DNA from: Ensifer sp.
Lineage (GTDB): Bacteria > Pseudomonadota > Alphaproteobacteria > Rhizobiales > Rhizobiaceae
Direction: 5' to 3'
Length of the DNA stretch: 64,000 bases
Assembly (NCBI RefSeq): GCF_035999135.1
Contig: NZ_DASYGZ010000100.1
Coordinates: 4,883-68,882 of the forward strand
Shown one piece after another: positions 12,703-40,475 of this stretch; the stretch's first letter is position 1, and the number at the start of each line of letters is the position of its first letter. A program made the translations under genes and the position numbers. A model generated the notes under the pieces. It was given only the letters and a program-made list of their open reading frames with translations, was not told the DNA's origin and ran no database searches.

Positions 12703-12724
12703 CAGGGGGCGGGGACTTCCATTG

Positions 12725-14308
12725 ATGCGTGAATTCGTCGTTGCGGTCGATGTCGGGACCGGCAGTGCGCGTGCCGGTATCTTTGACGGCAAGGGCAGGC
12801 TGCTGGCGCGCGCCGACCTGCCGATCGCCATGAACCGGCCGGAAGAAAACCATGCCGAACATGATTCCGAGGATATCTGGCGGGCCGTCTGCGGCGCGGT
12901 CAAGGCGGCGCTGACAAAGGCCGGCGTGGCGGCGGACCATGTCGCGGCCATCGGCTTCGACGCAACCTGCTCACTGGTGGTGCGCGACCTTGAGGGCAAG
13001 CCGCTTTCGGTCAACCGCAAGGGCGACGGACGCTGGGATACGATCGTCTGGCTCGACCACCGGGCGCTTGCCGAAGCTGATTTCGTCACCTCGACCGGCC
13101 ACCCGGTGCTCGACTTTTCCGGCCGGGTGATGTCGCCGGAAATGGAAATGCCGAAGCTCATGTGGCTGAAGCGCCATTTGCCGGATCAGTGGCGGAAGGC
13201 CGGCTTCTTTTTTGATCTCGCCGACTATCTCTCCTGGCGGGCGACGGGCAGTGCCGCCCGGTCGCGCTGCACCCTGACGGCCAAATGGAATTACCTGGCG
13301 CACGAGAAGCGCGGTTGGCAGCCCGACTATCTGGCAAGGATCGGTCTTGAGGATCTGATCGAGCGGGGTGGGCTGCCCGAAGAGACCTTGCCGATCGGTG
13401 GATCGGTCGGCAGCTTGAGCGCTGCGGCTGCAGCCGAACTCGGCCTCGACGAAGGATGCCAGGTGGCGCCGGGGCTGATCGATGCCTATGCCGGAGCGCT
13501 CGGTGTCGTCGGCGGATTCATCGGCAAGCCGGAAAAGCTCGAACGGCAGCTCGCCCTGATCGCCGGCACGTCGAGCTGTATCGTCGCCTTTTCCAAGGAG
13601 ATGAAGCCGGGCTTCGGCATGTGGGGGCCCTATTTCGAGGCGGTGCTTCCCGGGGCGTGGCTGATCGAGGGCGGACAATCGGCGACCGGCGCGCTGCTCG
13701 ACCACATCGTGCGACTGCATGGCGGTGGTCTGGAGCCGACGGCCGAGACCCATGGCCGGATCATTGCCCGCGTGCAGGAGCTCAGAGCCGAGCAGGGCGT
13801 GGCCTTTGCCGACCGGCTGCATGTCCTGCCCGATTTTCACGGCAACCGTTCGCCGCTCGCCGATCCGCACGGGCTCGGCGTCATCAGCGGCCTGCCGCTC
13901 GATTCCTCCTTCGATGCGCTTTGCCGGCTCTATTGGCGCACCTGCGTCGCGATCGCGCTCGGCATCCGCCACATCCTGGAGATGATGCGGGAGGTCGGCT
14001 ACCAGCTCGACACGCTCCACGTCACCGGTGGCCATGTGCGCAATGCGCTGCTGATGGAACTCTATTGCGACGTCACCGGCTGCCGCGTCGTGGCTCCGGA
14101 TGCGCCGGACGCCGTGCTGCTCGGAACGGCGATGGCGGCCGCCGTCGCTGGCGGCATGCACCCGGATCTCGCATCCGCGGGCGCGCAGATGGCATCGGGC
14201 GGGAACGAGCGATTGCCCAATGCGGCGGTCCGCGACGCCTATGACCGCGACTATCGCCGCTTCCTAGCGCTCTATCGCCACCGCCAAGAGCTCGACGGTA
14301 TGGAATGA
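12725..14308 (+). CDS. FGGY-family carbohydrate (ribulo-/pentulose) kinase
   Basis: VDVGTGSARAG, PDFHGNRSP, TGGH motifs. Confidence 0.9.
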   Translation: MREFVVAVDVGTGSARAGIFDGKGRLLARADLPIAMNRPEENHAEHDSEDIWRAVCGAVKAALTKAGVAADHVAAIGFDATCSLVVRDLEGKPLSVNRKGDGRWDTIVWLDHRALAEADFVTSTGHPVLDFSGRVMSPEMEMPKLMWLKRHLPDQWRKAGFFFDLADYLSWRATGSAARSRCTLTAKWNYLAHEKRGWQPDYLARIGLEDLIERGGLPEETLPIGGSVGSLSAAAAAELGLDEGCQVAPGLIDAYAGALGVVGGFIGKPEKLERQLALIAGTSSCIVAFSKEMKPGFGMWGPYFEAVLPGAWLIEGGQSATGALLDHIVRLHGGGLEPTAETHGRIIARVQELRAEQGVAFADRLHVLPDFHGNRSPLADPHGLGVISGLPLDSSFDALCRLYWRTCVAIALGIRHILEMMREVGYQLDTLHVTGGHVRNALLMELYCDVTGCRVVAPDAPDAVLLGTAMAAAVAGGMHPDLASAGAQMASGGNERLPNAAVRDAYDRDYRRFLALYRHRQELDGME

Positions 14309-14338
14309 GGCAAAGTGACAGGGAGCGCGGCCGGCGAT

Positions 14339-14363
14339 GGAACCTTTTTCGCAGCCGTGCATT
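14339..14363 (+). promoter_or_regulatory. EcfG/RpoE2-type promoter with no downstream protein gene
   Basis: GGAAC-N16-CATT. Confidence 0.65.
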
Positions 14364-14369
14364 CTCTCT

Positions 14370-14525
14370 TTGACCGGACGGTGGCGCGCATCGCCCCCAA
14401 TGCGGCGCCGGAGGCAGACCGCCGGCCTACAACTCACACTCCCCGAGTGAGTTGCACATACCAGCCAGTGCCTTCCCTCGGCACTGGCTGTTGTGTTTCC
14501 GGGGCTCCCCATCGCAGCAATATTT
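14370..14525 (+). ncRNA. Candidate trans-acting sRNA with C-rich hairpin loops
   Basis: Hairpins 14383-14409 (loop CGCCCCCA), 14430-14454 (ACTCCCCGA), 14462-14490 (TTCCCTC, perfect 11 bp stem) and a weaker fourth containing CTCCCC; ends approximate. Confidence 0.55.
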
Positions 14526-14563
14526 GAAAGCGGGCGCAACGCCTTGGCGAAGACGGCACCGAC

Positions 14564-14594
14564 AAAAAAAACGCCGGTGGGCGTGCCACCGGCG
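14564..14594 (-). terminator. Intrinsic terminator of phyR
   Basis: CGCCGGTGG/CCACCGGCG stem with A8 on + strand (U-tract on -). Confidence 0.8.
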
Positions 14595-14679
14595 CGAGTT
14601 GAAGCGGCGATCCGACCTGTCAGGCCGGGCTGTCAGGTCATTTCGCCGTTCTTCTGGAGCAGCGAAATGACCTGTCCGC

Positions 14680-15474
14680 TCAGGCCGCCGCCTTTGTCGA
14701 TTCGTTGAAGAACAGTGCCTGGCTGATCAGGGCCTTGACCATGTCCGGGTTGAACGGCTTGGTGACGAGGAAGGTCGGTTCCGGGCGTTCACCGGTCAGC
14801 AGTCGTTCCGGGAAGGCGGTGATGAAAATCACCGGGATGGCGCTGGTCTTGAGGATGTCGTTCACGGCGTCGATGCCGGAACTGCCGTCAGCGAGCTGGA
14901 TGTCGGCAAGCACCATGCTCGGACGGGTCTTCTTGTAGAGTGCGATCGCCTCGTCGCGCGTGCGGGCAATACCGGTGACGCGGTGGCCGAGGCTTTCGAC
15001 CATCTGCTCGATGTCGATCGCGATCAGCGGCTCGTCCTCGATGATCATGATATCGGTTGCGACCTGGCGCGAGATTTCCTGCGAGGCGCGGTCGAGCAGG
15101 CTGCCGACCTTGTCAGTGGAAACATCGAGAACTTCGGCTGCTTCCTCCGGCCGGAATCCCTCGACGGACACCAGAAGGAAGGCCTGGCGGGCAAGCGGGG
15201 ATACCGTGGCCAGATTGATCGAGGCGCGCTGTTCCCAGGCAAATGGCGAGACAGGCTCCGGTACAAGCACGGACGACGAGCCGAAGAGCGAGGTGAAAAG
15301 GCGGAACAGCCCGACACGGTCGTTGCTCGCCTCGGGGAAAATCGACGTGTCGGCGATCAGCGCTTCGAGCACGGCGGCGACATAGGCGTCGCCCGACGTC
15401 TGCGAGCCGGTCAGAGCGCGCGAGTAGCGGCGCAAATACGGCAGAAGCGGTGCGATCCGCGTGGACAATGTCAT
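14680..15474 (-). CDS. phyR: Anti-anti-sigma response regulator PhyR (RsiB1-like)
   Basis: N-terminal sigma-like domain (LPYLRRYSRALTG) plus C-terminal receiver (IIEDEP, LADIQL, TKP). Confidence 0.95.
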   Translation of the reverse strand: MTLSTRIAPLLPYLRRYSRALTGSQTSGDAYVAAVLEALIADTSIFPEASNDRVGLFRLFTSLFGSSSVLVPEPVSPFAWEQRASINLATVSPLARQAFLLVSVEGFRPEEAAEVLDVSTDKVGSLLDRASQEISRQVATDIMIIEDEPLIAIDIEQMVESLGHRVTGIARTRDEAIALYKKTRPSMVLADIQLADGSSGIDAVNDILKTSAIPVIFITAFPERLLTGERPEPTFLVTKPFNPDMVKALISQALFFNESTKAAA

Positions 15475-15517
15475 AGGGTGAACTCCCTCAGGTATCTTAT
15501 TGCGGTGACGTTGCGAC

Positions 15518-15573
15518 AACGTTCATCGTAAAAAAAGGTTCCGCGAGGGAACATTTCATTTTTCAGCTGCGTT
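15518..15573. promoter_or_regulatory. Back-to-back EcfG promoters for phyR and nepR-ecfG
   Basis: Minus GGAAC(15542-15538)-N16-CGTT(15521-15518); plus GGAAC(15548-15552)-N17-CGTT(15570-15573). Confidence 0.85.
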
Positions 15574-15609
15574 AAGGCGACAATGGACACACGAAGGCGA
15601 TAGTTGAAA

Positions 15610-15804
15610 ATGATACATAAAAAAGGGGCAGGGCGGGCAGCCGGCACGACCTTATGGACAGAGGACCCAAATGCGCAGATCGCAGCCAAGCTGAAAGCGC
15701 TCTATCAGTCCGTACAGGAAGAGGCGATTCCCGCCCGATTTCTCGATCTTCTGGAAAAACTCGACGCAGCCGAGCAGCAATCGGCGCTGCAGGGCAGGGA
15801 GTGA
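15610..15804 (+). CDS. nepR: Anti-sigma factor NepR (RsiA1-like)
   Basis: IAAKLKALYQSVQEEAIPARFLDLLEKL core. Confidence 0.9.
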   Translation: MIHKKGAGRAAGTTLWTEDPNAQIAAKLKALYQSVQEEAIPARFLDLLEKLDAAEQQSALQGRE

Positions 15805-31112: not shown

Positions 31113-32110
31113 GTGAGCACAGACATGACCGATCTTTCTCTCGCAGATCCGCCTTCCGCGCTCGGGCAGCAGACCCGGATCCGCTCCGACCTCAACGCCG
31201 AGCGGGTCCGCTCCGCCTGGATGTTTCTCGCGCCGACCCTTTTGGTGCTGGCGCTCGTCGCCGGCTGGCCGCTTGTTCGTACCGTCTATTTCAGCTTCAC
31301 CAACGCGTCGCTGACCAATCTCGAGGGTGCCGAGTTCGTCGGCTTCAAGAACTATTTTACCTGGATCACGCTGAAGAGCGGACGCACGGTCTATAACGGT
31401 CTGCTCGCCGATCCCGCCTGGTGGAACGCGGTCTGGAACACGCTGACGTTTTCAGCCCTTTCCGTCACCATCGAGACGGTGCTCGGGCTGATCGTCGCAC
31501 TGGTACTCAACGCCCATTTTCCGGGGCGCGGGCTGGTGCGTGCGGCGATCCTCATCCCCTGGGCGATCCCGACCATCGTCTCGGCCAAGATGTGGGCCTG
31601 GATGCTCAACGACCAGTTCGGCATCCTGAACGACCTGTTGCTCGGCCTTGGCCTCATCAGCCACAAGATCGCCTGGACGGCCAATCCGGAGACGGCGATG
31701 GTCGCGGTTTTGATCGTCGACGTCTGGAAGACGACGCCCTTCATGGCATTGCTCATACTTGCGGGCCTGCAGATGGTGCCGACGGATATCTACGAGGCGG
31801 CCAAGATCGATGGCGTCCATCCGCTAAAAGTCTTCTGGCGCTTGACGTTGCCCTTGATCCGACCGGCGCTGATGGTCGCCGTGATCTTCCGCATGCTCGA
31901 TGCGCTGCGTATCTTCGACCTGATCTACGTGCTGACGCCCAACAATTCCCAGACCAAGACCATGTCGGTGCTGGCGCGCGAGAACCTCTTCGACTTCGAC
32001 AAGTTCGCCTATGGCGCCACCGCCTCGACGATGCTGTTCCTGATCATCGCGGCGATCACCGTCGCCTACATGTGGTTCGGCCGCGTCAATCTCGAGGGGG
32101 GAGAGCGCTG

Positions 32111-38798: not shown

Positions 38799-40439
38799 AT
38801 GATGCACAAGCTCAACGGACGTCTTCGTCTTCTGACCGCTTCGGCGGCGCTTGCCATGGTGATGGCAGCGACAGCGCCGGCTTTTGCCGAGACGCCGAAG
38901 GACACGCTGGTCGAAGCTTTCGCGATCGATGACGTCATCACCATGGATCCGGGCGAAGCTTTCGAACTGACCGCTGCCGAAATCACCGGCAACACCTACA
39001 GCCTGCTGGTGCGCCTCGACATCAACGACACCTCCAAGGTCGTCGGCGATCTCGCCGACAGCTGGACCGTGTCCGACGATGGCCTGACCTATACCTTCAA
39101 GCTGAAGTCCGGTCTGAAGTTTGCGTCCGGCAATCCGGTGACCGCTGAAGACGTTGCCTGGTCGTTCGAGCGCGCCGTGAAGCTCGACAAGAGCCCGGCC
39201 TTCATCCTTACCCAGTTCGGCCTCACGGGCGACAACGTGACGGAGAAGGCCAAGGCTGCGGACGAGCAGACCTTCGTCTTCACCGTCGACCAGCCCTATG
39301 CGCCGAGCTTCGTCCTGAACTGCCTGACGGCAACCGTTGCCGCCGTGCTCGACAAGAAGCTCGTGCTCGAAAACGTCAAGCCGGTCACGCCGACCGACGA
39401 CTACAAGTACGACAACGACTTCGGCAACGAATGGCTGAAGACCGGCTATGCCGGTTCCGGTCCGTTCAAGCTGCGCGAATGGCGCGCCAACGAAGTCATC
39501 GTGCTTGAGCGCAACGACAACTATTATGGCGAACAGGCCAAGCTTGCTCGCGTCATCTATCGCCACATGAAGGAAAGCTCGGGCCAGCGCCTGGCGCTTG
39601 AAGCCGGCGATATCGACGTTGCCCGCAACCTCGAGCCGGGCGATCTCGATGCCGTCTCGAAGAACGCGGATCTTGGCGCCACCAGCGCGCCCAAGGGCAC
39701 GGTCTATTACATCAGCCTCAACCAGAAGAACGCGAACCTCGCAAAGCCGGAAGTGCGCGAAGCCTTCAAGTACCTGGTCGACTACGATGCGCTCGGCTCG
39801 ACGATCATCAAGGGCATCGGCGAGATCCACCAGAGCTTCCTGCCGAAGGGCGTGCTCGGCGCACTCGACGAGAACCCCTACAAGCTCGACGTCGCCAAGG
39901 CGAAGGAACTCTTGGCCAAGGCCGGCCTTGCCGACGGTTTCACCGTCACCATGGACGTGCGCAACGGCCAGCCGGTTACCGGCATTGCCGAATCCTTCCA
40001 GCAGACGCTCGGCCAGGCCGGCGTGAAGCTCGAAATCATCCCGGGCGACGGCAAGCAGACGCTGACGAAGTACCGTGCGCGTAACCACGACATGTATATC
40101 GGCCAGTGGGGCATGGATTACTTCGATCCGAACTCCAACGCCGAGACCTTCACCAGCAACCCTGACAATTCCGACGAAGGCAAGAACAAGACGCTTGCCT
40201 GGCGCAATGCCTGGGACGTTCCGGAGCTGACGAAGAAGACCAAGGAAGCCCTGCTCGAGCGCGACAGCGCCAAGCGTGCCGAAACCTACAAGGAACTGCA
40301 GAAGACGGTGCTTGGCGAAAGCCCGTTCGTCATCATCTTCCAGCAGACCGAAGTCGCCGGCTACCGCGGCAACGTCAAGGGCCTGAAGCTCGGTCCGAGC
40401 TTCGACACCAACTTCGTCGCCGGCATCACCAAAGAATAA
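38799..40439 (+). CDS. Peptide ABC substrate-binding protein (family 5)
   Basis: Signal peptide, LADSWTVSDDGLTYTFKL, GSGPFKL. Confidence 0.92.
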   Translation: MMHKLNGRLRLLTASAALAMVMAATAPAFAETPKDTLVEAFAIDDVITMDPGEAFELTAAEITGNTYSLLVRLDINDTSKVVGDLADSWTVSDDGLTYTFKLKSGLKFASGNPVTAEDVAWSFERAVKLDKSPAFILTQFGLTGDNVTEKAKAADEQTFVFTVDQPYAPSFVLNCLTATVAAVLDKKLVLENVKPVTPTDDYKYDNDFGNEWLKTGYAGSGPFKLREWRANEVIVLERNDNYYGEQAKLARVIYRHMKESSGQRLALEAGDIDVARNLEPGDLDAVSKNADLGATSAPKGTVYYISLNQKNANLAKPEVREAFKYLVDYDALGSTIIKGIGEIHQSFLPKGVLGALDENPYKLDVAKAKELLAKAGLADGFTVTMDVRNGQPVTGIAESFQQTLGQAGVKLEIIPGDGKQTLTKYRARNHDMYIGQWGMDYFDPNSNAETFTSNPDNSDEGKNKTLAWRNAWDVPELTKKTKEALLERDSAKRAETYKELQKTVLGESPFVIIFQQTEVAGYRGNVKGLKLGPSFDTNFVAGITKE

Positions 40440-40475
40440 GCCGTCTCGAAGGAATAAACCGAAAGGAACGTTCCC

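Follow-up and report, generated by a model that had tools for sequence, protein, structure and literature searches.

A phyR-linked small RNA gene of Ensifer with conserved C-rich loops is very probably an EcfG-dependent orthologue of Sinorhizobium meliloti SmelC601

The window, that is, the whole 64-kb stretch of Ensifer DNA that was analysed, contains a core general stress response (GSR) locus, because nepR, an ECF sigma factor gene and an HWE histidine kinase gene are found beyond phyR. The phyR product was matched by the Pfam families PhyR_sigma2, PhyR_sigma-like and Response_reg and by the NCBIfam PhyR family (388 bits). On its 3' side, a gap of 371 bp lies between phyR and an FGGY-family pentulose kinase gene, and in this gap a small RNA (sRNA) gene is predicted. 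The features of the locus are as follows:

12722-14308, plus strand: FGGY-family pentulose kinase gene (Pfam FGGY_N/FGGY_C; TIGR01315, 501.7 bits)
14339-14364, plus strand: EcfG (RpoE2)-type promoter, with the -35 box GGAAC at 14339-14343 and the -10 box GCATTC at 14359-14364
14372-14498, plus strand: predicted sRNA gene of about 127 nt (conservation; covariance model score of 128.5 bits; length equal to a published 127 nt)
14506-14511, plus strand: CTCCCC module, outside the RNA
14595-14571, minus strand: intrinsic terminator of phyR (terminator scan), which sets the phyR transcript apart from the sRNA
14680-15519, minus strand: phyR as the longest open reading frame, with its stop at 14680 and a likely ATG near 15474, convergent with the sRNA
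15518-15542, minus strand: phyR promoter with the same motif (pattern match)
15548-15573, plus strand: nepR promoter with the same motif (pattern match)
15604-15804: nepR, beyond phyR and followed by the ECF sigma gene and the HWE histidine kinase gene

The initial annotation had placed in this gap a GGAAC-N16-CATT promoter built like those of phyR and nepR, and the motif was located by pattern matching at 14339-14363 (+). In the 64-kb window, the motif was counted six times against 4.9 expected, which is not above chance on its own, so the case for the promoter and the RNA rests on conservation. GGAAC-N15-17-NNTT was kept in 83 of 83 distinct orthologous upstream regions, at a constant distance from the RNA start. 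Further GGAAC-N15-17-CNTT matches in the window lie at 31435-31460 (+), 39905-39929 (+) and 40449-40474 (-), a number that chance would give. As a separate observation, the divergent EcfG promoters of phyR and nepR-ecfG overlap back to back (15518-15573), and their two GGAAC boxes form a palindrome, GTTCCGCGAGGGAAC (15538-15552), which was flagged by the terminator scan on both strands.

The stretch is present in each of the 22 other genomes sampled from this GTDB genus, with 84-94% identity. In the genus alignment, the majority-base fraction was 0.95 in the RNA (14372-14498) and 0.87 in the promoter, and it was 0.51 upstream of the -35 box and 0.46 just after the U-tail; conservation is confined to the promoter and the RNA and ends at the U-tail. 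The boundaries first proposed had to be moved. The transcription start site (TSS), expected near 14369-14370, is placed at G14372 by homology with a TSS mapped in S. meliloti, and the RNA, which had been drawn as far as 14525, ends at about 14498. Likewise, four hairpins with C-rich loops had been proposed and three of the loops were borne out, while the fourth, the CTCCCC module, is present in the sequence but lies past the terminator in flanking DNA that is unconserved within the genus.

The predicted RNA is organized in four helices and a junction, which are listed here:

14374-14381 with 14419-14425, plus strand: helix P1 (CCGG(A)CGG pairs with CCGCCGG), enclosing P2 and the junction (alifold)
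14383-14409, plus strand: hairpin P2, with loop L1 CGCCCCCA at 14392-14399 (covariance model alignment and folds)
14410-14418, plus strand: junction GGAGGCAGA between P2 and P1 in Ensifer, with GGAGG at 14410-14414
14430-14454, plus strand: hairpin P3 (CAACUCA/UGAGUUG), with loop L2 CACUCCCCGAG at 14437-14447
14462-14498, plus strand: terminator hairpin P4 of 11 bp, with its stem at 14462-14490, loop L3 UUCCCUC at 14473-14479 and the tail UUGUGUUU at 14491-14498 (terminator scan)

The fold of 14369-14505 had an energy of -67 kcal/mol (z = -4.2 against dinucleotide shuffles). When MAFFT and alifold were applied to the 61-sequence alignment, P1 and the outer part of P2 were lost, as a one-base bulge puts the clades out of register with each other, and an alignment based on a covariance model (CM) was used instead. 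In this alignment of 76 copies, which is fitted to the model and biased towards the modelled structure, 92.6% of the pair cells were standard pairs, compared with about 30% when the partners were slid by 1-3 columns, and 23 of 32 pairs had changed on both sides; none of 500 column shuffles attained the observed covariation values. In P1, all five modelled pairs had changed on both sides (for example, from CG to UA), the same was true of all seven pairs of P3 among distant members, and P4 was paired in 100% of cells in the 76 sequences. Compensatory changes are also visible by eye, both in P2, which reads GGCGCGCAU/AUGCG(G)CGCC in Ensifer, GACGCACAU/AUGUG(A)CGUC in Sinorhizobium and GGUUCUCAU/AUGAGAACC in isolates named Rhizobium, and in P1 (CCGGA/UCCGG versus CUGGA/UCCAG). 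Covariation supports the four helices.

The loops are conserved in a similar manner. The C-rich loops CGCCCCCA, CACUCCCCGAG and TTCCCTC named in the initial annotation were all found, and a run of at least four C was present in L1 of 73 and in L2 of all 76 members, with a run of at least three C in L3 of 72. In the minimum-energy folds of the individual members, 91% of the loop positions of L1, 66% of those of L2 and 95% of those of L3 were unpaired. Almost every member has C-rich, unpaired loops, and therefore selection acts on the loops as well as on the stems. Within L1, GCCCCCAAUG is invariant in the 61 sequences of alignment A2, which were themselves fetched by a pattern containing that 10-mer. 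The junction is more variable: in Sinorhizobium, GGAGG is followed by other bases, and in most other genera the junction is C-rich or of the CCAA type, with a second copy of CCCCAA in some. This GGAGG resembles a Shine-Dalgarno sequence inside the RNA, and it could pair with C-loops of the same molecule.

For the distribution of the RNA, an exact-pattern scan (GCCCCCAATG-N50-80-CAGCCAGTGCC) of 185,579 species genomes gave 83 loci. Sixty-nine of them belong to records named Sinorhizobium, Ensifer, Pararhizobium, Rhizobium sp., Xaviernesmea, Ciceribacter, Ferranicluibacter and unclassified Rhizobiales or Alphaproteobacteria, and the remaining loci were evident chance matches in unrelated phyla. 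A covariance model (R1) was then built from 61 non-identical copies, including those of S. medicae, fredii, saheli, kostiense, americanum, terangae and glycinis. The RNA of the window scores 128.5 bits against this model. Of the 301 genomes searched with it, 36 gave a match, and the RNA was found in 19 of the 135 genera sampled within the GTDB family. All 15 distant matches that were inspected (36-98 bits) have GGAAC-N16-17-(C/T/A)GTT just 5' of the RNA and a convergent phyR on the 3' side, including six loci with a PhyR only 55-57% identical; in general, the promoter was present in each inspected copy, and phyR faced the RNA at every locus for which enough flanking sequence was retrieved. Among the 301 genomes sampled from the order, no credible match was found outside the GTDB family. 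The matches there (L141-L149, 29-44 bits) are not members, as they lack both a GGAAC promoter and a phyR within 1.5 kb. Three of these (L143, L145 and L147; about 32 bits), from one genus of another family of the same order, have several C-rich loops (GUGCCCCCCGUC, CUUCCCUCCCGG and the terminator loop UCCCUCCCCCC) and resemble some other C-loop sRNA, perhaps one of the cuckoo/CcsR type. The source genome has one true copy, and a second match in it (C162:16497-16621, 33-36 bits) is spurious, as it lies inside a coding region and has no promoter.

The Infernal and Rfam searches suggested in the initial annotation were carried out, and Rfam gave no relevant match. At the gathering score, the sole Rfam match in the 64-kb window was a tRNA, and at E<=10 the region 14250-14720 gave only terminator-driven or miRNA chance matches. 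The mir-616, anti-hemB and suhB matches correspond to the phyR 3'-UTR hairpin and the phyR terminator on the opposite strand. That 3' UTR (14571-14675, minus strand) contains a perfect 18-bp hairpin at 14633-14675, followed by the phyR terminator at 14595-14571. A contig of 81 nt from a congener library (X32), which has homopolymer tails and a depth of about 1980, falls at the corresponding place, with the phyR stop on one side and the sRNA 3' end on the other (L075:4615-4647), and the S. meliloti catalogue has two entries, SmelC600 and SmelC599, within the phyR-sRNA gap. A second stable RNA may be derived from the phyR 3' UTR. The distance from the sRNA terminator to phyR is 193 nt here and 49-300 nt in Sinorhizobium and Ensifer loci; in many genera, the sRNA and phyR are about 1.25 kb apart, which is roughly one gene, possibly a tcrY-like one.

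Expression was examined in relatives. Many soil and rhizosphere metatranscriptome assemblies contain the words of the RNA but not those of its flanks, and four contigs start at 14382-14385, without promoter sequence, which is weak support; these contigs carry no strand information and derive from relatives, and in some of them the sequence includes the promoter or extends past the terminator. Stranded raw reads of a congener were mapped to an S. fredii-type locus, with the strand calibrated on phyR and the kinase gene. At 85% minimum read identity, the sense-strand depth was 10-18x in the RNA, 2-9x in the kinase-sRNA spacer (15-50% of the flanking depth) and 14-22x at the kinase 3' end, and the dip in the spacer became deeper at 95% identity. 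From this stranded sense coverage with its spacer dip, the RNA is therefore transcribed in the predicted direction in the congener. Read-through from the kinase gene adds sense transcripts there, and some transcription passes the terminator.

The initial annotation had guessed that the RNA might already be listed in Sinorhizobium RNA-seq catalogues, and an entry with an RpoE2 promoter and a mapped TSS does correspond to it. In S. meliloti 1021, SMc_sRNA_298 lies in the intergenic region between SMc01504 (rsiB1 = phyR) and SMc01503 (Schlueter et al. 2013, PMC3616915 supplement). Its RpoE2 promoter reads GGAACCT-N13-GCATTA, its TSS was mapped by differential RNA-seq to 2625439 (-), 8 nt past the -10 box, and its intergenic array signal rose upon rpoE2 overexpression (M = 2.30) (PMC3616915). 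The same RNA is SmelC601 (SMc06778) at 2625313-2625439 on the minus strand, with an RpoE2 promoter, one copy and expression in nodule zones ZII/IZ/ZIII (Table 1 of a 2020 review, PMC7143759), and the predicted RNA, 14372-14498, has the same length of 127 nt. A SmelC601 family model with extensive microsynteny, mostly within Sinorhizobium/Ensifer, was given by Reinkensmeier et al. 2011. An exact search with the S. meliloti 1021 promoter string gave no match among the 23 genomes of the GTDB genus to which the window belongs, because S. meliloti belongs to a different GTDB genus. The published 34-nt string is, however, very similar to the promoters found in Ensifer sp. USDA 6670 and in S. medicae. 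These promoters can be aligned with the window, and the TSS equivalent to the mapped one is therefore taken to be G14372. The orthology is based on what has been published for the S. meliloti 1021 RNA (the string of its promoter, its coordinates and length, and the genes beside it) together with the records of named Sinorhizobium species, and EcfG dependence is carried over from the orthologues. On this basis, we consider it very probable that the RNA is the Ensifer orthologue of SmelC601 and depends on EcfG. The RNA is already catalogued and already read as GsrN-like in print, and its discovery is not new.

Very probably transcribed from an EcfG/RpoE2-dependent promoter, the RNA would be one of the outputs of the general stress response of alphaproteobacteria. 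How it would act can be proposed by analogy. Its C-rich loops, and the nearly invariant GCCCCCAAUG most of all, would pair with G-rich or Shine-Dalgarno-like stretches of mRNA leaders, and the pairing would alter the translation or stability of targets in the stress regulon. The sequences complementary to the loops are GGGGAG for L2, GAGGGAA for L3 and CAUUGGGGGC for L1. The C-rich loop of GsrN pairs with G-rich leaders, and its interaction with katG was proven by compensatory mutations. Other C-loop sRNAs act like GsrN. Target searches in the genome brought up no specific target: the 77, 23 and 93 9-mer seed sites complementary to each loop near start codons were mostly in internal codons and without a pattern, the top duplex energies against 21,350 crude start regions, in which start calls are unreliable, had no functional theme, and the katG leader of the genome had no extended complementarity to the loops. 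By duplex energy, a weak type of test, the katG leader gave -14.3 with L1 (genome mean -12.9 +/- 3.3) and -10.7 with L2 (genome mean -10.2 +/- 2.8). Taken by itself, loop-to-mRNA pairing is somewhat favoured as the mechanism. The whole statement, that the RNA is the Ensifer orthologue of the trans-encoded SmelC601 (SMc06778, SMc_sRNA_298), a single-copy RNA of about 127 nt with an EcfG/RpoE2 promoter, convergent with phyR and acting by C-loop pairing with mRNA leaders, appears likely to us.

A different origin of the RNA has to be weighed against an EcfG-driven gene. It could mainly be the processed or terminated 3' UTR of the FGGY pentulose kinase mRNA, with the GGAAC motif being secondary. 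No terminator separates the kinase gene from the sRNA, so that the sRNA hairpin is the first terminator past the kinase stop codon. In 87 of the 96 orthologous loci, including distant genera with a PhyR only 55% identical, the kinase gene lies immediately 5' of the RNA in the same orientation, and the sense coverage of the congener spacer points to read-through. On the other hand, the promoter is kept in every one of the 83 upstream regions while the remaining spacer is not, the read depth dips in the spacer, and five loci (L130-L134) retain the RNA without the kinase upstream. In S. meliloti, moreover, a primary TSS lies at the expected distance from the -10 box and the signal rises with rpoE2 (PMC3616915), and in R. 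etli the activity of a promoter fusion of the counterpart depends on EcfG (PMC3892343). The kinase mRNA may be a second source of the RNA. That it is the main source is contradicted by the conservation of the promoter and by the primary TSS published for S. meliloti, and we regard this origin as unlikely. An origin from the phyR 3' UTR, the other form of the 3'-UTR explanation that the initial annotation had wanted checked, is ruled out, as phyR terminates on the other strand at 14595-14571. The region could also encode a small protein, as open frames exist for 70 amino acids at 14315-14527 (+) and for 91 amino acids at 14264-14539 (-). Neither has a Pfam match, and the plus-strand frame starts upstream of the conserved promoter and of the predicted RNA start, in agreement with the initial reading that no credible open reading frame follows the promoter. 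Conservation tracks the boundaries of the RNA and not those of the frames, congeners have 1-nt indels inside the region, and the substitutions in the helices are compensatory; a coding function is accordingly extremely unlikely.

Even when an sRNA gene is accepted, its loops could serve another purpose. The RNA might chiefly titrate a protein, such as Hfq or a CsrA-like factor, act as a sponge, or work through the GGAGG of its junction. As there are three of them, the C-rich loops could form multivalent binding sites, the GGAGG of the Ensifer/Sinorhizobium junction (14410-14414) could pair with one of the C-loops of the RNA itself, and our scans yielded no convincing mRNA target. However, GsrN, the best-studied analogue, acts by loop-to-mRNA pairing with proof from compensatory mutations, and the GGAGG junction is clade-specific and not found family-wide. 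CsrA binds GGA, and to our knowledge C-rich loops are no CsrA motif. Titration, sponging or action through the junction is improbable as the chief role, and pairing of the C-rich loops with mRNA leaders is the mechanism that we prefer.

How rhizobia in soil and inoculants withstand heat, salt, desiccation and starvation is governed by the general stress response, and to the best of our knowledge Caulobacter is the only case in which the RNA arm of this response has been elucidated. We found no later functional study of a SmelC601-type RNA in the literature. With strong purifying selection on its helices and C-rich loops in many plant-associated genera, this type of RNA is a good candidate for functional work. 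What is new here is a covariance model, a structure backed by covariation and a distribution wider than published, for an RNA without an Rfam family, and two small additions are the conserved linkage to the kinase gene and the clade-specific GGAGG junction. These can be joined into a broader reading, which we offer only as a speculation with rather low chances: there would be one ancient, structurally constrained, phyR-linked RNA family in at least 19 genera of the GTDB Rhizobiaceae, almost always just 3' of a pentulose kinase gene, in which Ensifer and Sinorhizobium exchanged the second CCCCAA motif for an internal GGAGG, making the RNA self-masking or switchable. If this were true, the RNA would be a tractable, uncharacterised post-transcriptional arm of the rhizobial general stress response with a built-in regulatory twist.

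Compared with known systems, the RNA resembles the alpha-r14 ('cuckoo', NfeR1/Smr14C) and CcsR RNAs in that these are stress-linked alphaproteobacterial sRNAs with C-rich anti-Shine-Dalgarno-like motifs in several hairpin loops, and an affinity to them had been suggested in the initial annotation. This affinity did not hold. The CCUCCUCCC-type anti-Shine-Dalgarno motif of alpha-r14 is absent from all loops, the stems are nearly invariant here but hypervariable in alpha-r14 (PMC7143759), the RNA has a single copy at a fixed position whereas those RNAs are multicopy, and its promoter is of the EcfG type and not of the RpoH type. Membership is ruled out by the lack of a model match in Rfam, the absence of the motif, the conserved stems and the single copy.

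The resemblance to GsrN (CCNA_R0081) is closer. Both have a sigmaT/EcfG-dependent promoter and an exposed 5' C-rich loop (here L1 CGCCCCCA), and both lie near the GSR locus when species other than C. crescentus are considered. The initial annotation had described Caulobacter GsrN as encoded beside phyR; in C. crescentus, gsrN is in fact distal to the GSR locus, and it is beside phyR only in other Caulobacteraceae (PMC5869019). GsrN was compared here by its description, and it differs in having one dominant C-rich loop instead of three, in its sequence, for which the published BLASTn matches do not go beyond Caulobacteraceae (PMC5869019), and in its katG leader target, to which nothing points here. 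Nevertheless, the central proposal of an EcfG-driven, GsrN-like sRNA with C-rich loops beside phyR stands, with the promoter, the loops and the location all confirmed, and it agrees with that of Tien et al. 2018 (PMC5869019), in which RNAs of S. meliloti, R. etli, B. abortus and A. radiobacter were put forward as putative GsrN homologues from their position, EcfG site and exposed 5' C-rich loop.

Among the rhizobial RNAs, ReC64 of R. etli (Vercruysse et al. 2010; Jans et al. 2013), compared by its published description, is likewise an ncRNA that depends on EcfG1, is encoded in the ecfG-phyR region and has a promoter with the EcfG consensus. By 5'-RACE, its TSS was placed just after this consensus in the ecfG1-phyR region, a band of 88 nt was seen on Northern blots, and the activity of its promoter fusion was lost in the delta-ecfG1 mutant and switched on by EcfG in E. 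coli (PMC3892343). It differs in the reported length of 88 nt and in its location downstream of phyR-tcrY. SmelC601 of S. meliloti 1021/2011 (Schlueter et al. 2010/2013), finally, has the same site (rsiB1/SMc01504-SMc01503), the same orientation to phyR, the GGAACCT...GCATT promoter, the length of 127 nt and the single copy, and the copies of Sinorhizobium medicae, fredii, saheli, kostiense, americanum and others align over the full length with 110-125 bits. The host here is another species (Ensifer), and about 8-15% of the RNA positions differ from the Sinorhizobium copies. Whereas the published SmelC601 family was mostly found in Sinorhizobium/Ensifer, our covariance model extends it to 19 of the 135 sampled genera.
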